Assembly: GCA_910587535.1 (NCBI GenBank)
Contig: CAJUKM010000001.1
Coordinates: 17,496 to 81,495 of the forward strand
Origin: an uncultured Bacilli bacterium
GTDB lineage: Bacteria > Bacillota_I > Bacilli_A > RF39 > UBA660
Length of the DNA: 64,000 nt
Reading direction: 5' to 3'
Position numbers and translations under genes: made by a program. Positions 3,782 through 50,619 of this stretch are shown in pieces (the first letter of the stretch is position 1; the number at the start of each line of letters is the position of its first letter). The notes beneath the pieces were generated by a model. It was not told the DNA's origin and searched no databases. It was given only the letters and a program-made list of their open reading frames with translations.

Positions 3782-4450
3782 TTATAGTTGCCAGTCAATA
3801 GGCTTAAGTCCATCGCTTTGTAAGAATTCATTAGTTTTAGAAAACGGTTTCGATCCGAAGAAGCCATTCCTTGCACTGAAAGGTGATGGATGAGTTGATT
3901 CTACTACGTGATGAATCGGATTTGTAATATAGAATTTTTTACTTCGAGCGAATGAGCCCCATAATATGAATACTATAGGTGTTTCTTTTTCGTTTAACTT
4001 TTTTATGATACTGTCAGTAAACATCTCCCAACCGAGAGCACTATGACTTCCAGCTTTGTCTTTTTCTACAGTCAAAATCGAGTTTAATAAGAGAACTCCT
4101 TCTTTTGCCCATTTAGTCAGATCTCCACAGTTAGCCGGTTCTTTAATGCCCAAATCACTTTCGATTTCTTTATAGATATTTTGTAGTGATGGAGGTACTC
4201 TAACACCTGGTCGAACTGAAAATGATAATCCATGTGCTTCCCCCGTTCCATGATAGGGATCTTGACCAACTATGACGACTTTTGTGTCTTCATAACTCGT
4301 GAGTTTTAGTGCTTCGAATATGAGTTCTTTTGGTGGAAAAACCGTCTTCGTCGCATATTCTTTTTTAGCTAAAACCATCGTGTTATAAAATTCTTTCGAA
4401 GAAGTGATGCTTTCTAATACTTCATCCCAATCATTATTAAACAATTTCAT
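3782..4450 (-). CDS. ung: uracil-DNA glycosylase (family 1)
   Basis: GQDPYHG and HPSPFS motifs are present, 222 aa. Confidence 0.95.
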   Translation of the reverse strand: MKLFNNDWDEVLESITSSKEFYNTMVLAKKEYATKTVFPPKELIFEALKLTSYEDTKVVIVGQDPYHGTGEAHGLSFSVRPGVRVPPSLQNIYKEIESDLGIKEPANCGDLTKWAKEGVLLLNSILTVEKDKAGSHSALGWEMFTDSIIKKLNEKETPIVFILWGSFARSKKFYITNPIHHVVESTHPSPFSARNGFFGSKPFSKTNEFLQSDGLKPIDWQL

Positions 4451-4459
4451 ACTACTCTC

Positions 4460-4897
4460 CTACTTATGATAACTTTCGTTATTGTTTATTTTAAATGTTC
4501 TATAGATCTGTTCTAAAAGAACTCCTCTAAATAGTCCGTGAGGCATCGTAAATTTAGAGAACGATAACAGTTTATTCGCTCTACTTTTTATGCTTTCATC
4601 GAGTCCTTCCGAACTTCCAATTATAAACACTATTGTTGAATAGGAAATAAAAGTTTTGTCTATTAGATTTGCTAGATCCTCACTTTTCATACTTTCACCT
4701 TTTATATCACAGGCGATTACATAATCTCTATCGTCTAGGTGTTTCAAAATGTCTATACTCTCTTTATTGAGATCGTTTTCATCTTTGAGTTCTATTAAGT
4801 CTATCTTATGATATTTAGATATTCTTTTTTTATAGTCTTCTATAAGCTCTTCTAAATATGTTTCTTTTATTTTTCCTAAGCATATTATTTTTATCAT
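4460..4897 (-). CDS. rlmH: 23S rRNA (pseudouridine1915-N3)-methyltransferase RlmH
   Basis: 145-aa SPOUT-fold protein with RlmH-like sequence (IICLGKIKE...HGLFRGVLLEQIYR). Confidence 0.85.
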   Translation of the reverse strand: MIKIICLGKIKETYLEELIEDYKKRISKYHKIDLIELKDENDLNKESIDILKHLDDRDYVIACDIKGESMKSEDLANLIDKTFISYSTIVFIIGSSEGLDESIKSRANKLLSFSKFTMPHGLFRGVLLEQIYRTFKINNNESYHK

Positions 4898-5658
4898 ACT
4901 ACTATAGTTTCGGTCCTCTCTTTTTGTCTTGCAATAGAAATGTTTTCGAATTCTATATCGTATTCTTTAAGAGTTTTCTTCACTGTTGCAAGTGCAATTT
5001 CTTCATCGTTGTTTTCTTTACTCAGGTGAGCTAACACGACTTTCTTTGTTTTTGGACCGATAAGCTTTGATAGATAGAATCCTGTTGCATTGTTAGATAG
5101 ATGTCCTTGATCGCTCAATATGCGCGATTTCAACCATTTCGGATATGATCCGTTTATCAATTTTTCGACGTCATGATTAGCTTCAATTATATATACATCT
5201 TTGTCATGAAGTTTAGCGAAGTATTTTTGATTTAAATATCCCGTATCGGTCATGTATACGAGCGAGGAATTTTCATCCTCGATCAAATAACCGTGGGCAT
5301 CTACCGCATCGTGGCTCACTTTAAATGGATCGACTGTCGTTTTCCCGACAGTCACTTTTTCGTCAATCTCTATTACATTTTCATAAGATTTTAGAGCTTC
5401 AATCTCTTTTCTAATCGCTTTAGTGACTATCACCGTGGGGCTATTTTTTTTAATAAATACATCTAATGCGCCAGTATGATCTTTATGAGCGTGAGTCATA
5501 AAGATGTAGTCTATTTCTTCTGTTGCAACTCCCAAATCGGCAAGTTTTTCTTTTATATATTTATTGTTCATTCCTATATCTATGAGAATCTTTGCATCAG
5601 ATGTTTCGACATAGGTACAATTTCCTTCGGATCCTGAGGCTAAAACGCTTACTAACAT
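4894..5658 (-). CDS. MBL-fold metallo-hydrolase, YycJ/WalJ-like
   Basis: HAHKDHTG metal motif and collinear similarity to B. subtilis YycJ. Confidence 0.85.
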   Translation of the reverse strand: MLVSVLASGSEGNCTYVETSDAKILIDIGMNNKYIKEKLADLGVATEEIDYIFMTHAHKDHTGALDVFIKKNSPTVIVTKAIRKEIEALKSYENVIEIDEKVTVGKTTVDPFKVSHDAVDAHGYLIEDENSSLVYMTDTGYLNQKYFAKLHDKDVYIIEANHDVEKLINGSYPKWLKSRILSDQGHLSNNATGFYLSKLIGPKTKKVVLAHLSKENNDEEIALATVKKTLKEYDIEFENISIARQKERTETIVV

Positions 5659-20762: not shown

Positions 20763-20834
20763 AGTGTATTCTACTTGATAGAATTATTTTTTTCAACTAA
20801 TATAAAAAAAGAACTAGTTTATAGTCCTTTAAAG

Positions 20835-23468
20835 TTACTTTTTAAATACGTATTTTTTCTTGTCTTTTTCTTCAGACAATGTTCTTGCGACCGAATATTT
20901 TACTTGCTCTATTTCTTTTAAGATATAAATCATTATGCGAGTTTCTTCGTCTAAGTTTTGCCAGTTATTCGGTGTCGGCAAACCGGAGTTTTCTGGAATT
21001 GCACTTAGAGGGTCCTTTTCTTCTAGTGCATTCAACCATTTATTTAGGATGCCTGTAATTACTTGGGCAATTTCAGCGTTTCTTTGATCATGCATGTTAT
21101 TATCTGTTATAATACCACTTATCTCTTTTATACTGACCGCTATAGGATTTAATTCATTATCTTCACTTTCTTCTCCTTTATATATAAGAAGACCATTTTT
21201 AATAAAGTGAACTAATTTTTCTCTTCTAATCTGTCTGAAATCTAACTTGGACATATCGTCTAAGATTTTCATGAGTTTTTTTCTAATCATGAGCTCTTGA
21301 TCTAAGGGTGAAAAATTCGCCGTTAAGTAATCGATACTGTTACTAAGTGCGTCAATTCGAGCTAAAAATCTTTTTTTATTTTTGATGTCGAGAAGAAAAC
21401 TTATTTCATCTTTTATCATGCTTATAAGAACGGATAGCTGACTTAATCTTTTTCCTTCTAAATCTAAAATCAATTCTTCAGTACGTACTGCTCTTATAAA
21501 TAACTCTTCCATTTTTCTTTCAAATTCATTTAAGTAATCTTTCTCTAAAATCTTTCCAGTTTGAGAAAGATCTATTACATTTTCGGATAGCCCTTTTTTA
21601 GCTTCTTGTAATGCATCTATTACGTCATTTTGGAAAAATTTCTTAGTATATTTTTCTGCGATAAAACAGATATACCGAATTTTATCTTCTAAAGTCTCTG
21701 TAGATAAAGGTCGTTCTGAATGATATATGTCTATATTTGGAAGATCAATAAGTTTTTTCATGTCGCTGTTATAATTAATTTTTGTCAAAATAGTTTCAAG
21801 GTTTGCTAGGAGTGCTGCTCTAATTGCCTTAGGATTATCTAAAGCTAGAGACAATTCAATTTCTGGATTCAAGTATCCTAAAAGTGAAACGTTTTTTGTA
21901 TTTAGACTTTTGTTATATTCATCAATCATCGCTGTAACCATATCCCTTATTATTTCAGCTTCCTGAATTGATAGTGCGTTTAAACTTCTATTTATTCTTG
22001 CAATTAATATGTTTATATCTTTGTCATCTATTGATGCAATATCTTTGCCATTTACTGAGATTATTTTTTTATCTTCTTCTGATATACATTCTACTTTTAT
22101 TTTTTTCCTTTCCCATTTTTTTGACGCAAATTCCATTTGCAACCTTTTGCGCCAGCTGATGTCTGCTCCAATAAAAGTTATTTTTCTGAGCCAATAATTT
22201 CTGTGTTCGACAACAAGCTCATATAATTTCATATACTGATTAGTATCGTTTATGATTATTATTTCATATGCCTCAGCCAATAATTCTATTAAGCCTCTTT
22301 TCTCTGAAACGTTGTCAATTATGCTGTCACTTAAAATTAATCTTCCAATAGAGTTGCCTATATCGCCAATGCTAGTTAAAGACTTAGGTATCGATAATTC
22401 TTTCAAACTACACCAATAGATAGCATCATCACCCATTGTTTTTAGGGAGTTTGGTAAATCTAGAACTTTGATTTGATTGTAAGAAAGAGCATCATTTCCT
22501 ATAATTTGTAACGTATTGGGCAGTACAATCTCGCCTATATATTTTTCTTTTAGAGCATATGGAGCTATTTCGATGACTCCATCAGGGATAACTACTACTT
22601 TTTCATGTGTATATTGAATATCGTAATGATATGGAAGATCTTTTACGGGAGTTCTATATTCTTGACCAAAATTTCGTCGACTTCCATATAATACACCTTT
22701 ATAAATTATCCAAGTTTCATCGTTGATTGTTAAAGGATCATCTGATTTTTCATCTTCTTGTTCTTTTCCATTTATTAAAGTTATATCTGGAAATAAGTTC
22801 TTGACTCTATCGAATTCTTCATCAGAGAGTGGAGTTCCTGTTATACGAATTTTCTTTAATAGTGGCAAGCCTAACGTCGAGATATATTCCAAATTTTCGA
22901 TTCCATTTTTTCCGTTACGTCTTAAAGTTAGTTCTGTGATTTCAGTACCATACTTGTTTCTAAAATATTCCACGTGAGAATTTTCATCACTGATACTCAA
23001 CTTAGAAATTGAACACTCTGCAAAAGCATTTTCTCCTATAAAGGCAACACTATCTGGAATCGATAGTTCTTTTAATTCTGGACAACCATAAAAAGCATTA
23101 TTCTCTATTCTTTTTAAACCTTCGGCGAAGATTACTTCTTTAATACGTTCTTGATTTCTAAATACACCTTCATCTATTATTTCTACAGATGGTGGAAATA
23201 TTATTGTCATTTTTGTTGATTCAGAGTTTAACGGACTTATAGATACATATAAATCTGAAATCCTTCTGATTTCATTTGGTATAATAATTATTTGCATTTC
23301 ATTTCTTTTTATGATTTCTACATTATAGACTTCTATATCTACACCGGATATATTTTCATCTGGATCAGGTGTCGGATAGCCATGAATATTAAAAAAATCT
23401 CTTGTCACACTTTGACATTCATTTGGTTCTATAATCTCATCATTTTCATCGTCAGTTTCTACAAACAT
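20835..23468 (-). CDS. cytoplasmic leucine-rich-repeat (BspA/LRR_5-type) domain protein, 877 aa, with acidic N-terminus and long alpha-helical C-terminal region
   Basis: Repeated IP.SV..IG..AF..C motifs and no signal peptide. It has its own consensus promoter and RBS (GGGGAG). Confidence 0.7.
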   Translation of the reverse strand: MFVETDDENDEIIEPNECQSVTRDFFNIHGYPTPDPDENISGVDIEVYNVEIIKRNEMQIIIIPNEIRRISDLYVSISPLNSESTKMTIIFPPSVEIIDEGVFRNQERIKEVIFAEGLKRIENNAFYGCPELKELSIPDSVAFIGENAFAECSISKLSISDENSHVEYFRNKYGTEITELTLRRNGKNGIENLEYISTLGLPLLKKIRITGTPLSDEEFDRVKNLFPDITLINGKEQEDEKSDDPLTINDETWIIYKGVLYGSRRNFGQEYRTPVKDLPYHYDIQYTHEKVVVIPDGVIEIAPYALKEKYIGEIVLPNTLQIIGNDALSYNQIKVLDLPNSLKTMGDDAIYWCSLKELSIPKSLTSIGDIGNSIGRLILSDSIIDNVSEKRGLIELLAEAYEIIIINDTNQYMKLYELVVEHRNYWLRKITFIGADISWRKRLQMEFASKKWERKKIKVECISEEDKKIISVNGKDIASIDDKDINILIARINRSLNALSIQEAEIIRDMVTAMIDEYNKSLNTKNVSLLGYLNPEIELSLALDNPKAIRAALLANLETILTKINYNSDMKKLIDLPNIDIYHSERPLSTETLEDKIRYICFIAEKYTKKFFQNDVIDALQEAKKGLSENVIDLSQTGKILEKDYLNEFERKMEELFIRAVRTEELILDLEGKRLSQLSVLISMIKDEISFLLDIKNKKRFLARIDALSNSIDYLTANFSPLDQELMIRKKLMKILDDMSKLDFRQIRREKLVHFIKNGLLIYKGEESEDNELNPIAVSIKEISGIITDNNMHDQRNAEIAQVITGILNKWLNALEEKDPLSAIPENSGLPTPNNWQNLDEETRIMIYILKEIEQVKYSVARTLSEEKDKKKYVFKK

Positions 23469-23495
23469 ATTTAGTACTCCCCTTTTTTGAGGGTT

Positions 23496-23523
23496 ATTAT
23501 ACTACGTTTGAGAATTTTGTCAA
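23496..23523 (-). promoter_or_regulatory. sigma-A promoter TTGACA-16-TATAAT for LRR gene
   Basis: -35 revcomp at 23518-23523 and -10 revcomp at 23496-23501. Confidence 0.6.
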
Positions 23524-23541
23524 TATTTTATAAGCTGGCAT

Positions 23542-23576
23542 ACAAAAAGTTCGCATTTTGCGAACTTATTTTATCT
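23542..23576. terminator. bidirectional intrinsic terminator (perfect 9-bp stem AAGTTCGCA/TGCGAACTT)
   Basis: Located between the Abi-like gene and the LRR gene promoter, with a T tract on both sides. Confidence 0.7.
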
Positions 23577-23622
23577 ATCTTAATGTATTTGTATTGAGTT
23601 ACTTTAAAAGGTATTTTTTATT

Positions 23623-24801
23623 TTATAAATAAGCAAATATATAGACTTCTTTAAATAGGTTACTCCATAGATTCGAGTTTTTTCCTAATATTTCAGGGTT
23701 TTCTGTTTTTTCATCTAATATTATTGTCGATAGTTTACCCGCTAAAACATCCCATGTTTCAAACGGATCTTTAATCCACTCATACGTCCCATCATCGTTT
23801 ACTTTAATTAGAGCTCGGAAAGACGCGAGTAACGGATAGATTATGCCTTTTGGGACGATATATTTTATATCACTCAAAGTAAACTCAGTTTTTCCAACTA
23901 TATTATCTCCATCATATTTTGCATATTTTCTAGTTCCGTATCTCTTACCATTACTATTCGAAACAGCTGCAAAATCTTTCTCTATTTTATCGTACATCGC
24001 AAAAATGTCTTTTATCAACGGTTTCATGTTATATATCATCTGATTTCTTTCTTCAACAGACATGTTTAAAAACTTTCTTAATGTCGTCTCTTTTCCAGTA
24101 TAACATTGTACTGGTTGAACCTCAGATAGCGTCCCAAATGACGTTTTTAAAGGGTACAAATTTTGGCTGAACATGATTAATACAGATAAGACTTCTCTGA
24201 CATCGATCGGTATTATATTTGGAACATTGTAATGTTCGTTCATCTTATATGCAATTCTGTTAGAAAATTCACAGTCTGCAAATGCCTCTTTTAAAATAGC
24301 AAAATTATTTTCTAACTCTGCTATAGACTTTAAATCGACCTGAACTGATGTGTTTCTCGCTGCAGCTAATTCTACTGGAGATTCTAATCCAGTAAAGAGT
24401 TCAACAAAAACGTATCTTTCATCTTGTAAAACATTGCTAGCTTGTGCATCTAATATCGCTCTTAGTGTATGCCCTCCATCAATATTACCGTGGATTTCAG
24501 GATCTTCCATTTCTATAGTTAAAATCCCATTTGAATTGTCGAAAGAAACTTCCTTAACTGATAGTACAATCCCCCTGTTCAGTTCATGAAAGTTGCTATT
24601 TTCTTTCAGACTATCTTTTATTTTGCTTGCTACATTTGTCGTCATTTTTTGTTCTCTCGGATTTGTAGCCATCCAATCGTCAAATTCTAGTGGGATACTG
24701 TTTGCTTGTACGTAGCAAACATATTTAGTCTTCCCATCTTTCCCCAATACGGGATCTTCCATCTTTTTAAAAGATTTGGCTTTTAATTCGAATTTTTCCA
24801 T
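23623..24801 (-). CDS. hypothetical protein, possible abortive-infection (AIPR-like) / DGQHR-ParB-nuclease-like defense protein
   Basis: 392 aa. The motif NIDGGHTLRAILDA resembles the (I/L)DGQHR core of DndB/DGQHR and AIPR-type proteins. It has its own RBS (AAAGGAGGAAG) and terminator and sits in a variable island. The family assignment is tentative. Confidence 0.35.
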   Translation of the reverse strand: MEKFELKAKSFKKMEDPVLGKDGKTKYVCYVQANSIPLEFDDWMATNPREQKMTTNVASKIKDSLKENSNFHELNRGIVLSVKEVSFDNSNGILTIEMEDPEIHGNIDGGHTLRAILDAQASNVLQDERYVFVELFTGLESPVELAAARNTSVQVDLKSIAELENNFAILKEAFADCEFSNRIAYKMNEHYNVPNIIPIDVREVLSVLIMFSQNLYPLKTSFGTLSEVQPVQCYTGKETTLRKFLNMSVEERNQMIYNMKPLIKDIFAMYDKIEKDFAAVSNSNGKRYGTRKYAKYDGDNIVGKTEFTLSDIKYIVPKGIIYPLLASFRALIKVNDDGTYEWIKDPFETWDVLAGKLSTIILDEKTENPEILGKNSNLWSNLFKEVYIFAYL

Positions 24802-25128
24802 TCATTCTTCCTCCTTTTAATAAAAAAATTCTGAAACCAGAAGGATACAGAATGTTAAAAACTAAAACATAAATCTCATATTATTCTTTAAGTCTTTTAG
24901 TTCCACATCTTAATCGATACTGGATAGTTAAATAGGATACATTACCTACAACTATAAGCGTATTTTATCATCATGATTGCTCTATGTCAATAGTACGAGG
25001 TTTTTTATATCGTCTTTTTAAAACATGTATTTTAAAATATGAAGTGCACAGAAGATGAGCACTAAGATTTGTAAATGATATAATATCTACCAAGCAATTT
25101 ATTTGTCATAAAAAGGGAGGTATTATAA

Positions 25129-25200
25129 ATGGCAAATTATTGTCATCTATCATATGAGGATAGAAAAAATAAAAAAGATATTTATAACTCCCAATTATAA
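25129..25200 (+). CDS. small ORF (23 aa, MANYCHLSYEDRKNKKDIYNSQL) with near-ideal RBS
   Basis: AAAGGGAGG lies 7-8 nt upstream of the ATG. It sits in a 730-bp noncoding stretch. The promoter is unclear; there is a TGATATTAAT-like element at 25075-25086. Confidence 0.25.
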   Translation: MANYCHLSYEDRKNKKDIYNSQL

Positions 25201-25483
25201 ATATCAGTTTTGACAAATAAATTGCCTATTCAATTATAAAATATTCAATGTAGCGATTGTGCACTTAGTTTTAAAGTATGTACGATTTCTACACTTTTTG
25301 TCGTGGAACAGGTTTCCTTTGACACCTAATAATATACCATAGTTTTCATTTTTTTCAATTTTTTCTTAATCTATTCACTACTTTTTCCTTATAAAAAGTG
25401 CATTTCCTTTTAAAAATACACTTTTTTTATCCAACTGCACTTATTTGTGCAATTTAGATTGATTCAACGTCTTTTTAAAACAC

Positions 25484-25518
25484 AAAAAAACTTATAAACG
25501 GTAAGTCTATAAGTTTTG
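25484..25518. terminator. intrinsic terminator downstream of rpsI
   Basis: A7-AACTTATA-aacggtaagtc-TATAAGTT-TTG. Confidence 0.55.
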
Positions 25519-25533
25519 TGATAAAAGTCTTTA

Positions 25534-26521: not shown

Positions 26522-28132
26522 TTAAGAGTTTATTTTATTTTGTATAGGTTTTAGTGCTCTTCCCTTTTCTACTCCATCTAATTTCCAACGATAATCTTTA
26601 AATGTTTCTACTTTATCTTTAAAGTCTTTTATGCTATCAAAATTTATATCTGCCTCTCGCATTATATCATTTAGTAGTGGGAATCGATTTTGCAGTTTAA
26701 ATAGGTCTACTGCATCACTACCCGAGGCACTAATAGAAGAGGCGATATCTTTTAAATCCTGTTCTTTTATACTGTAAGCTTCGGATAAGAAGCGATAAAA
26801 TACTCGATCGATTGCATCGACTCCAGATAAAAATGATTCATCATACCAAAAGACGTTTCCGAAACCTTCAAGAGGCGTCAATATCAGACTTCCTGCCTCT
26901 GTAACAGTCATGGATTTAGCTATATTATATAAATATAGACCTTCTTCAACAGTATAAGTTTTGTCTTCATTTATTCTAGTAATTATATCTCCAACTGCCG
27001 TTTTAAAGATACTCAAATAACAGGCATTTCCTATAAATTGGTTGATTTCAGATCTCAACATAGGGATGTATCCCAATTCATCATATACTTTTTTTAGAGC
27101 TTCGTCACTAGATGCTCTTACGTCTAGGGCATATGCTGTTTTATAGAATTCTATTATATCGTTTTCATCTTTTAGTCCGAAAAAGGCATGTAGTTTTTGT
27201 AGATCGGCACTGAAAATACTATTATAGTAGTTATCTAGGTTTCTATCTTCTTTAAAAGCGGCCTTTAATAAAAGCATTCTTTGACTTTCCTTTTTGTCTG
27301 TTGACCACGAATAAAAGTCCGGGATATTTATCTGATTGCCTGCGAGATAATCTTCTACTTGGGTAATACTTGAAATATCTAGAATGTTGGAAAGAGCAAC
27401 GTCTATTTGAACACTAGTTAGTTGTTGCCCTTTTTCTTTTTGACAACTGCATGCTTCCGTTCTAATCTTATTAAACTGAGACGCGATGAGTGCAGCCAAA
27501 TAATCGGATTCTTCACTCCATTCCCTATTGCCATTTTTTAGAGTCTTTGATAGGAATTCTCTTACACATTGAGTGTAATCTATGATAAGAGTAGAAGTAT
27601 TTCTATCGAAGACAATAGCAGAAAAATTACCTGTCGATCCCAAAGCAATTTTGATGTCTTTCAATACACAAATATCATCTTTAGGATTTTCATTTTTTTC
27701 AAATACTATATCTAAAGCTTTCTTTAAAGCTTCTCTAAAAAGTCTGTCTTCGAGATTTTTTTCGCCCGTTATTTTATCAGACGCATGATAGAAGGGACTA
27801 TTTTGTGAATTACCTAAAATGCTATTTTCAATTATGATATCCGATAGACTTCTGTAATCTGTGATTTCGCCATCACATTCTAATAAAGTCAAGTCTGTTT
27901 CCAGTATTTTTCGAAGTTCTTCTTCGTTCAGATAAGTGTTAGCGTTTCTAAAGTCTACCTCTATTTTTTTTAATTCTTCGAGATATAAACTACAGTTATC
28001 GAATCTAGGATTTATCTTTTCAGTTGTTTCAGTTTCTTTAGTGAAATCTTTTTCTTTTGTCTTTGGAGGCATTACTATCAAAGACAAAAGAATAATCATA
28101 AATGATATGCCAGTTTTAATCGATCTTCTCAT
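26522..28132 (-). CDS. secreted/membrane-anchored hypothetical protein (536 aa), paralog B of tandem pair
   Basis: N-terminal signal anchor. It is collinear with 28157..29740 and shares DDICVLKDIKI/EDICRLKDLRI, ACSCQKEKGQ/QCSCRIEKGQ and LLLKAAFKEDR/LMLLQAAFKKDR blocks with it. Confidence 0.7.
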   Translation of the reverse strand: MRRSIKTGISFMIILLSLIVMPPKTKEKDFTKETETTEKINPRFDNCSLYLEELKKIEVDFRNANTYLNEEELRKILETDLTLLECDGEITDYRSLSDIIIENSILGNSQNSPFYHASDKITGEKNLEDRLFREALKKALDIVFEKNENPKDDICVLKDIKIALGSTGNFSAIVFDRNTSTLIIDYTQCVREFLSKTLKNGNREWSEESDYLAALIASQFNKIRTEACSCQKEKGQQLTSVQIDVALSNILDISSITQVEDYLAGNQINIPDFYSWSTDKKESQRMLLLKAAFKEDRNLDNYYNSIFSADLQKLHAFFGLKDENDIIEFYKTAYALDVRASSDEALKKVYDELGYIPMLRSEINQFIGNACYLSIFKTAVGDIITRINEDKTYTVEEGLYLYNIAKSMTVTEAGSLILTPLEGFGNVFWYDESFLSGVDAIDRVFYRFLSEAYSIKEQDLKDIASSISASGSDAVDLFKLQNRFPLLNDIMREADINFDSIKDFKDKVETFKDYRWKLDGVEKGRALKPIQNKINS

Positions 28133-40480: not shown

Positions 40481-40700
40481 GTCTTTTCCTTCTTTCTAAA
40501 TAAAAAAATCATGAAACTTAAGGACGGATTATTTTCCGCGGTACCACCTTAATTCATGATTTACATGCTCTTTCTTCCTTTAACGCAGGACTTTACGGTT
40601 GAACTCCAAAACCATGTTCGGCTTATCTCAATACCATCTTTCAGCGTACGATGGCTCTCTATAATATATGATAAGCTTACTCTTTTCTTCTCAGTTCAAT
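40481..40700 (-). ncRNA. T-box riboswitch leader of metG
   Basis: Minus-strand AAUUAAGGUGGUACCGCGG (plus 40536-40554) matches the T-box consensus. A terminator helix (AUCAUGAAUUAAGG / CCUUAAGUUUCAUGAU) followed by U7 overlaps it. A candidate AUG specifier lies in GAAAGAUGG. The promoter TTGATT-17-TATCAT with TGn is at 40707-40735. Confidence 0.8.
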
Positions 40701-40706
40701 ATGAAC

Positions 40707-50495: not shown

Positions 50496-50505
50496 ATATT
50501 CCTCC

Positions 50506-50584
50506 AAAAAAAAGCACACACGAATATTGATCTTATGGCTGCTATCTTCCGATTCTGACCAGATTCGATAATTGTTCGTTGTGC
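50506..50584 (-). ncRNA. ffs: signal recognition particle RNA (small 4.5S-type), relocated upstream of tadA
   Basis: The minus-strand RNA GUGCACAACGAAC...CUGGUCAGAAUCGGAAGAUAGCAGCCAUAAG...UUCGUGUGUGC-U8 forms a long hairpin. Its apical region matches the SRP domain IV consensus (GGUCAG..CGGAAG..AGCAGCC with a GGAA tetraloop). A TTGCAA-17-TAATAT (TGn) promoter sits at 50591-50619 and a U8 terminator abuts the tadA RBS. Confidence 0.6.
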
Positions 50585-50590
50585 ACATAT

Positions 50591-50619
50591 ATATTATCAT
50601 TTTAGTTGGTGTTTTGCAA
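50591..50619 (-). promoter_or_regulatory. sigma-A promoter (TTGCAA-17-TGaTAATAT) driving ffs
   Basis: -35 at 50614-50619 and -10 revcomp at 50591-50596 with an extended TG. Confidence 0.55.

Follow-up and report, generated by a model that had tools for sequence, protein, structure and literature searches.

In a 64,000-nucleotide stretch of contig CAJUKM010000001.1 (the window, below) from an uncultured Bacilli bacterium, a low-GC, spore-forming gut organism known only from metagenome-assembled genomes, a 392-amino-acid protein of the AIPR family is encoded between rpsI and tilS. We found that this protein belongs to a clade of short, AIPR-only proteins carried by chromosomes, plasmids and prophages, and that its gene stands alone in a hotspot filled with other cargo in related lineages. 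Given that the gene is mobile, self-contained and retained, belongs to a defence-associated family and has relatives in defence-type contexts, single-gene protection is its most likely role. We therefore read it as a stand-alone short AIPR protein, horizontally acquired in the rpsI-tilS hotspot and selectively kept, which most likely acts by itself as an anti-phage or anti-mobile-element factor, and our confidence in this reading as a whole is about equal to our doubt. The initial annotation had suggested a single-gene phage-defence or abortive-infection determinant from an under-described family, and its interpretation is in essence supported. The gene adds a further member to a known, under-studied family without representing a novel type of system. 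What makes it interesting is that the AIPR-only clade is large, mobile and experimentally neglected, and that the window protein escapes PADLOC.

A stand-alone gene for a short AIPR protein

The probability of an open frame of 392 codons arising by chance in DNA of ~31% GC was estimated from base composition as about 1e-14, and a homology search returned more than 1,300 homologs of the protein, indicating that the frame is a real, intact gene. Its parts are as follows.

23623..24801, minus strand: coding sequence of the AIPR-family protein, 392 amino acids, ATG start (open reading frame and Pfam PF10592)
24810..24817, minus strand: ribosome-binding site AAAGGAGG, 8 nucleotides 5' of the ATG, read from the sequence
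24962..24990, minus strand: putative promoter-like site TTGACA-17 nt-(TG)TAAAAT with extended TG (consensus scan, 11 of 12 matches)
23547..23567, minus strand: intrinsic-terminator-like hairpin with a 9-bp stem (4 GC pairs) and a T-run, 56 nucleotides past the stop codon
24277..24729, minus strand: N-terminal region, amino acids 25-175, with almost all of the polar residues that are conserved family-wide; putative ParB/DndB-type nucleotide-binding domain
23626..24219, minus strand: C-terminal region, amino acids 195-392, mainly helical (AlphaFold2 secondary structure)

The initial annotation had credited the gene with a ribosome-binding site and a terminator of its own, and both are recognisable in these positions; terminator-like sites are enriched over shuffled sequence (5 found, 0.9 expected). 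It had also called the product cytoplasmic, which is a reasonable prediction because the protein is without a transmembrane segment (maximum 19-residue hydropathy 1.48) and has an acidic isoelectric point (pI) of 5.2.

Pfam AIPR (PF10592), one of the models against which a search had been proposed, matched the protein strongly (E=3.1e-25; 89.9 bits, cutoff 25), with residues 46-350 aligned to positions 3-280 of the 308-position model, and the Pfam scan gave no second domain. The proposed comparison with DndB/DGQHR models came out negative, since neither Pfam DndB (PF14072) nor the NCBIfam DGQHR models matched the window protein at E<=1. Close homologs are 392-401 amino acids long and 59-79% identical, and those that bear a name are called 'AIPR family protein'. 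When 1.84 billion cluster representatives were searched exhaustively, 947 clusters, defined at 50% identity, scored E<=1e-3 and 144 reached E<=1e-30. With few exceptions the best 150 clusters fall between 380 and 430 amino acids, and this uniform length indicates a distinct and large AIPR-only clade. Of 83 diverse clade members compared with the family models, 80 matched Pfam AIPR. The PADLOC AbiU model matched 12 (best E=7e-10), Pfam DndB weakly matched two (best 1.5e-4), and PADLOC DndB (0.0026) and, weakly, PADLOC MzaE each matched a single member.

AlphaFold2 models of reasonable confidence (pLDDT 84 at full length; pLDDT 81 and pTM 0.74 for residues 1-180) place a domain of mixed alpha/beta structure at the N-terminus and make the C-terminal half helical. 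The N-terminal region conserves NPR (47-49), LNRG (74-77), H104, G105, DGGHT (108-112, nucleotides 24466-24480), E134 and RN (149-150). Conservation of 90% or more across the 83 members is found mostly in the N-terminal half, at N47, R49, F71, N75, G77, G105, D108, G109, G110, H111, T112, E134, R149 and N150. The central motif lies in IDGGHTLRAILDA (residues 107-119), which overlaps HGNIDGGHTLRA (residues 104-115). Three segments, NPREQ, DGGHTLRA and RNTSVQVDL, were likened by eye to Boxes I-III of ParB, whose counterparts in the Spo0J protein of the window read NPFQPR, GERRTKAA and ENIQREDL; a similar likeness exists to the DGQHR-domain motifs QR, DGQHR and FxxxN (PMC4619093). AbiU1/AIPR/COG1479 proteins and the DndB N-terminus were assigned to the ParB superfamily by Makarova et al. 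(PMC3632139). In the BFVD collection of viral models the significant matches are phage AIPR proteins, and below threshold the sole recurrent theme is DndB, GmrSD_N/DUF262 and ParB/Spo0J. From the literature, the motifs and these weak cross-hits, a ParB/DndB-type fold of the N-terminal domain is probable. The likeness to a DGQHR/ParB-nuclease-like core that the initial annotation had noticed has a parallel in the D-G-x-H motif and in the weak DndB matches within the clade, but not in the DndB and DGQHR models or in Foldseek comparison with the PDB.

The C-terminal half conserves mainly prolines and aromatic residues, plus K374, and across the 83 members it holds no family-wide residues of catalytic type. 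AIPR proteins have been described as HEPN-bearing (Makarova 2012), and a HEPN assignment was considered and ruled out for this protein: the Rx4-6H motif is absent from its whole length, and the sole C-terminal histidine, H190, varies within the clade.

Mobility, neighbours and the rpsI-tilS hotspot

A scan of one genome per species located relatives in 147 species, spread over Clostridia, Bacilli, Erysipelotrichia, Negativicutes, Melainabacteria, Fusobacterium, Treponema and gut Alphaproteobacteria. The window protein is 55-63% identical to copies in Alphaproteobacteria, Negativicutes, Fusobacterium and Melainabacteria and about equally so to those in other Bacilli; this identity does not follow taxonomy and indicates that the AIPR-only clade has probably spread by horizontal transfer. 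In the same scan the closest copy was 67% identical, although at least five NCBI assemblies of the host species carry the gene.

Relatives were found on 46 PLSDB plasmids, ranging from small non-mobilizable to conjugative ones, and on one plasmid of 5.6 kb the AIPR gene is the sole cargo beside replication and toxin-antitoxin-type genes. Sixteen IMG/VR contigs carry the gene, and the nine that are annotated have terminase, portal, integrase and repressor genes in the flanks; among GenBank phage records it was present in 1 of 50,697. In the nine annotated contigs the gene itself has a Cro/C1-type helix-turn-helix (HTH), sigma-like or recombinase gene upstream and an HNH or GmrSD_N gene downstream. 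On three unrelated Lactobacillales plasmids (5.6-16 kb) the AIPR gene is accompanied by a divergent gene for an HTH regulator of ~90 amino acids, and divergent Cro/XRE-type HTH genes of 75-93 amino acids were located at L098 (pML21, 3822-5416), L099 (1522-3094), L100 (4609-6155), L102 (7215-9179) and L110 (7598-9152). This recurrence in plasmids and several prophages suggests a repressor-controlled module; the divergent HTH gene has no counterpart in the window. A small sigma-70 region-4 protein is encoded directly upstream on the same strand in four genomes (L012, L015, L021 and L027) and one viral contig (L105). Such an upstream gene recalls the sigma-like components of AbiR and Mza, systems that also have ParB- or AIPR-like proteins.

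To describe the surroundings of the clade, genes within five positions of AIPR were clustered over 82 loci. No conserved partner emerged, every neighbour family being confined to 8 of the 82 loci at most, and upstream gaps are mostly longer than 100 bp (median ~240 bp). Combined with the promoter-like site and terminator of the window gene, these figures agree with its earlier description as stand-alone. Recurrent neighbours are a D12 adenine methyltransferase (8 loci), an N6/N4 methyltransferase (6), DpnII (6), Mrr (5), an XRE-type HTH protein (6), an integrase (4) and the small sigma-70 region-4 protein (4), and NgoPII, a C5 methylase and JetA each occur as one-off neighbours. The order AIPR-Mrr-D12 methyltransferase-N6/N4 methyltransferase-DpnII is common to L032, L034 and L040 (also L033 and L062), with Mrr starting 25 nucleotides downstream of AIPR; in L032, L034 and L040 the cassette looks like a composite island of GATC-directed restriction, type IV restriction and AIPR. 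A cassette of AIPR with MboI/DpnII has been reported in S. pseudintermedius (PMC7593597). No dndCDE genes were found in the window neighbourhood or among the recurrent and immediate neighbours at ~80 loci.

Genes in the window follow one another as truA, two lipoprotein paralogs, rplM, rpsI, AIPR, LRR_5, tilS, ftsH, parA and parB, and the rpsI-tilS interval (20763-25533) lies close to the replication origin, ~7 kb away from parAB. Nine informative conspecific contigs, recognised by an identical S9 protein, were available for comparison. AIPR directly follows rpsI in all nine, and the ten alleles, with that of the window, are all intact, with 0-7 nucleotide differences and no more than one amino-acid change. 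Presence in 9 of 9 contigs and near-identical intact alleles indicate that, as judged from these sequences, the gene has reached fixation in the species and is subject to purifying selection; no presence/absence polymorphism between strains was seen among the nine contigs.

Seven related lineages with S9 proteins 88-98% identical (comparison loci L093-L097 and L119-L126) keep the backbone truA-rplM-rpsI...tilS-ftsH, and each has a different cargo between rpsI and tilS: ASCH and an HTH/DUF3990 gene; a GIY-YIG nuclease gene and Q_salvage; bAvd with a reverse transcriptase, resembling a diversity-generating retroelement (L095-L097); DUF5131, LDcluster4 and Peptidase_S66; DUF3800; an ABC-type ATPase, EamA and SDR; or NrdD genes with a radical-SAM activase. 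AIPR is absent from the slot in 7 of 7. The same backbone with other cargo in seven lineages establishes that the variable island is real, and rpsI-tilS is an integration hotspot that varies between species and not between strains. The initial annotation had placed the gene in such an island, and this holds for the comparison of lineages; within the species the content is constant across the nine conspecific contigs. It had also named the lack of any defence-family match, together with core presence in all relatives, as grounds for abandoning a defence role, and neither was found: the protein matches AIPR, and the related lineages lack the gene. For genome annotation the interval offers a clean example of a conserved hotspot with lineage-specific cargo.

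Candidate function and its alternatives

AIPR was named from comparative genomics and is often encoded in restriction-modification operons (PMC2292703), and PF10592 is counted among the 'Abi' (abortive infection) families in defence-island catalogues (PMC10121019). The family is routinely tallied as a defence family; the experimental tie found in the literature is lactococcal AbiU alone, the only experimentally studied AIPR relative that our literature search recovered. In Lactococcus lactis, modest protection and a delay in phage transcription are obtained with AbiUi on its own; its AlphaFold model is in part similar to a FokI-type nuclease, and AbiUii is a HEPN protein (PMC13064643; PMC3710099). 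The window protein and AbiU have the AIPR domain in common, the clade contains the 12 members that match PADLOC AbiU, and AbiU is likewise a single-gene, plasmid-borne and mobile determinant. However, the window protein is 392 amino acids long as opposed to 568 for AbiUi (PMC13064643 Fig. 7K), and it stays below PADLOC AbiU detection although those relatives do not.

DndB/DGQHR proteins (PF14072, TIGR03187) resemble the window protein in size, in the D-G-x-H core and in the N that is conserved within the third motif. The DndB N-terminus has been assigned to the AbiU1/AIPR/ParB-type family (PMC3506569, PMC3632139), and the motifs of DGQHR domains are a QR pair, the DGQHR pentapeptide and FxxxN (PMC4619093). 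By contrast, the AIPR protein reads NPR(49), D108-G-G-H-T112 and AxxxN150, so that the Q, the final R and the F are replaced, while the D, G, H and N at these positions are 95-100% conserved in the clade. DndB is moreover a transcriptional regulator of its operon (PMC4507180), whereas AIPR loci are without dndCDE. The DUF262/GmrS N-domains of GmrSD, SspE and BrxU are ParB/Srx-type NTP-binding domains with a DGQQR loop and a defence role. SspE (6jiv, E=2.1) had the highest TM-score among the noise-level PDB Foldseek hits of the full-length model, and GmrSD_N/DUF262 recur below threshold in BFVD; the window protein, however, has neither a C-terminal HNH/DUF1524 nuclease nor a Pfam GmrSD_N match. 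Mza systems have the AIPR Pfam family in common with it (PMC2292703, PMC9523054), PADLOC MzaE is weakly matched by a single member of the clade, and the sigma-70 region-4-like gene upstream of AIPR in four genomic loci and one viral locus is a further Mza-type likeness. A ParB-CTPase fold alone can be toxic via ATP hydrolysis, as in ToxB (bioRxiv 10.64898/2026.05.05.722872), a precedent for a fold with an intact nucleotide-binding loop as an active or toxic module. For the AIPR protein, however, no detectable sequence or structure match to proteins of this fold was obtained, and its gene has no immunity gene or delivery system beside it.

A defence role is the most likely one in view of family, mobility, context and retention, and single-gene protection could be pictured as follows. 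The N-terminal domain (NPR...LNRG...DGGHT...E...RN) would be a nucleotide-binding module of the ParB/DndB/DUF262 type that binds, and perhaps hydrolyses, a nucleoside triphosphate (NTP) and engages DNA, and the helical C-terminal half may contribute DNA contact or oligomerisation. Upon infection the DNA of the invader would be interfered with, either by blocked or delayed transcription, as reported for AbiU, or by nicking, and the protein would do so carrying no separate toxin domain.

Several results weigh against this proposal. PADLOC, NCBIfam and PHROGs scans of the window protein returned nothing, and the PADLOC comparison suggested by the initial annotation was accordingly negative, at E<=1. 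Pfam and motif searches recognised no nuclease or toxin motif. Foldseek comparison of the full-length and N-terminal-domain models with the PDB gave noise only, and PDB sequence and profile searches revealed no related structure. The hhalign comparison of the clade profile with three chromosomal ParB proteins gave no signal, the template being too shallow for a real test, and the comparison with one DUF262 protein encoded beside an AIPR gene was negative with a template equally too shallow, jackhmmer over the fetched loci having recovered a single family member. A pI of 5.2 is atypical for a non-specific DNA binder. With its AIPR match starting at residue 46, the protein is too short to hold the extra FokI-nuclease-like region of AbiUi, which it lacks, and the AbiU mechanism is therefore not simply transferable. 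The gene is fixed rather than variable within its species, and no other defence gene adjoins it in the window. Restriction-modification or other defence genes are neighbours in only ~10-20% of loci (raw counts without a control set), and the genes that directly adjoin AIPR are for the most part unannotated or have housekeeping roles, such as those for ribosomal L12, SecA, SpoIVA and FtsW. The literature search yielded no experiment on any short AIPR-only protein.

The main rival, which we regard as doubtful, is that the protein is an accessory or regulatory component dependent on an unlinked partner. It would act, for example, as a DNA-binding regulator resembling DndB or as a sensor that modulates restriction-modification, Mrr or Mza-type systems, and as an orphan in this genome it would by itself contribute little or nothing to defence. 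That the commonest neighbours are DpnII-type cassettes and Mrr, in a fixed order in L032, L034 and L040 and with the same pairing in S. pseudintermedius (PMC7593597), speaks for such a dependence, as do the regulatory role of DndB (PMC4507180), the closest other family, and the lack of a recognised effector domain. However, ~80% of loci have no restriction-modification neighbour and each recurring family occurs in less than 10% of them, AIPR is the sole cargo beside replication and toxin-antitoxin-type genes on the 5.6-kb plasmid, the gene appears to be under purifying selection in a host species without a nearby partner, and AbiUi works alone (PMC13064643). A bolder reading, which we think quite unlikely, is that short AIPR-only proteins are a widespread form of effector-less single-protein immunity, in which the active part would be the nucleotide switch, a divergent one of the ParB/DndB type. 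Such a switch might load onto invading DNA and silence its transcription, or might turn into an NTP-consuming toxin upon infection, and in many mobile elements the divergent HTH repressor would restrain it.

Weaker than partner dependence are roles that serve a mobile element or lie outside genetic conflict. It is unlikely that the gene works for the element carrying it, its product acting as a ParB-like factor in plasmid or prophage maintenance, silencing, anti-restriction or exclusion of competitors, and that the window holds a domesticated or relic copy. The 46 PLSDB plasmids, the 16 IMG/VR contigs and the phage-encoded 'AIPR protein' of BFVD are consistent with this idea, as are the ParB-like domain of the published classification (PMC3632139) and an insertion-sequence remnant directly upstream in the window. 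Nevertheless, AIPR is flanked here by no parA/parS-like partner and no other mobile-element genes, it is present in only 1 of 50,697 GenBank phage records, and the hhalign comparison, with its shallow template, indicated no relation to chromosomal ParB; prophage genes beside a repressor or integrase are, furthermore, typically host-beneficial defence genes, which makes this alternative overlap with single-gene protection. We hold it very improbable that the gene is a housekeeping or niche gene, for instance nucleoid-associated or nucleotide-metabolising, whose 'abortive infection' name is an annotation artefact. The name does come from computational inference (PMC2292703), many neighbours are housekeeping genes, and the gene is fixed in the species ~7 kb from parAB near the origin, but it is absent from 7 of 7 closest lineages, its distribution is patchy and resembles that of horizontally transferred genes, copies occur on plasmids and in prophages, and it is kin to the experimentally validated AbiU.

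If short AIPR proteins protect alone, the defence repertoire of the gut microbiome would gain a single-gene system that is both compact and widespread, and these proteins would provide a simple model of AIPR domain action without a fused nuclease. The effector-less form of immunity, if true, would be a mode of defence distinct from nuclease-, HEPN- or NAD-based Abi proteins.

The upstream gap and adjoining genes

The initial annotation had reported 730 bp of noncoding DNA following the gene. A gap of 732 bp between rpsI and AIPR does exist; it lies upstream of AIPR in the orientation of that gene, and it consists of a 444-bp insertion-sequence (IS) remnant and ~290 bp of intergenic DNA. No Rfam family and no tRNA was detected in the gap, and its reading as a structured RNA or tRNA locus was ruled out by these empty scans. 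The features of this region and of the gene downstream are listed below.

25026..25469, plus strand: internally deleted remnant, 444 bp, of an IS30-family-type IS, resembling a miniature inverted-repeat transposable element
25013-25025 and 25470-25482: 13-bp target duplication TCTTTTTAAAACA flanking the 444-bp remnant
25487..25517, minus strand: hairpin and T-run ending the rplM-rpsI operon (inverted repeat, sequence)
20835..23468, minus strand: LRR_5 (BspA-type) protein, 877 amino acids (Pfam LRR_5, E=7.6e-30)
23523..23496, minus strand: perfect promoter TTGACA-16-TATAAT of the LRR_5 gene itself

The remnant aligns in two blocks, one to the left end (86% identity) and the other to the right end (83% identity) of a 1,730-bp element coding for a 409-amino-acid transposase with an HTH_38 domain. 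The full element is present twice in the human-gut contig OOZQ01000005.1 (L117 and L118), with duplications of 12 and 13 bp, and the window copy retains the first 14 transposase codons (MANYCHLSYEDRKN). The remnant was also found in L086, L088 and L092 (up to the contig end), so that 3 of about 10 conspecific alleles have it, and is missing from seven conspecific contigs; the gap accordingly measures 732-733 bp in the window, L086 and L088 and 290 bp in those seven. Short-gap alleles keep 12 nucleotides of the left end of the element, and the possibility that they are pristine empty sites was rejected on this ground. The residual nucleotides indicate that the short alleles are deletion derivatives, which probably arose, as judged from the sequence, between TTTTAAAA repeats.

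The rpsI hairpin separates the rplM-rpsI operon from the AIPR transcription unit. The remnant sits between this terminator and the promoter-like site of AIPR, leaves both intact and forms no part of the AIPR gene, and the promoter-like region has the same sequence in conspecific contigs with and without the insert.

LRR_5 is the next gene on the AIPR strand and is absent from the slot in relatives. The non-core insertion that the initial annotation proposed AIPR to share with a leucine-rich-repeat (LRR) protein is borne out by this arrangement, the relatives having neither gene. A functional pairing of AIPR with LRR_5 was considered and rejected, their adjacency being limited to conspecific loci. 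The LRR_5 protein has its repeats in the N-terminal half and ~450 amino acids of unannotated helical sequence; unusually for BspA-type repeats, it has neither a signal peptide nor a membrane segment, and some assemblies (L001, L087) have its gene in split or truncated form.

On the other side, between truA and rplM, lie two tandem paralogs of ~530 amino acids without a Pfam match (26522-28132 and 28157-29740, minus strand), the 527-amino-acid one starting with a lipoprotein-type signal (…TAC↓S). They are confined to the species and its closest relative (L119, 538 and 539 amino acids), and in farther relatives truA adjoins rplM. The 64-kb window has no tRNA genes, and ordinary RNA elements were located on its minus strand: a T-box leader (40517-40701), an L10 leader (651-792) and a small signal recognition particle RNA (50498-50595).

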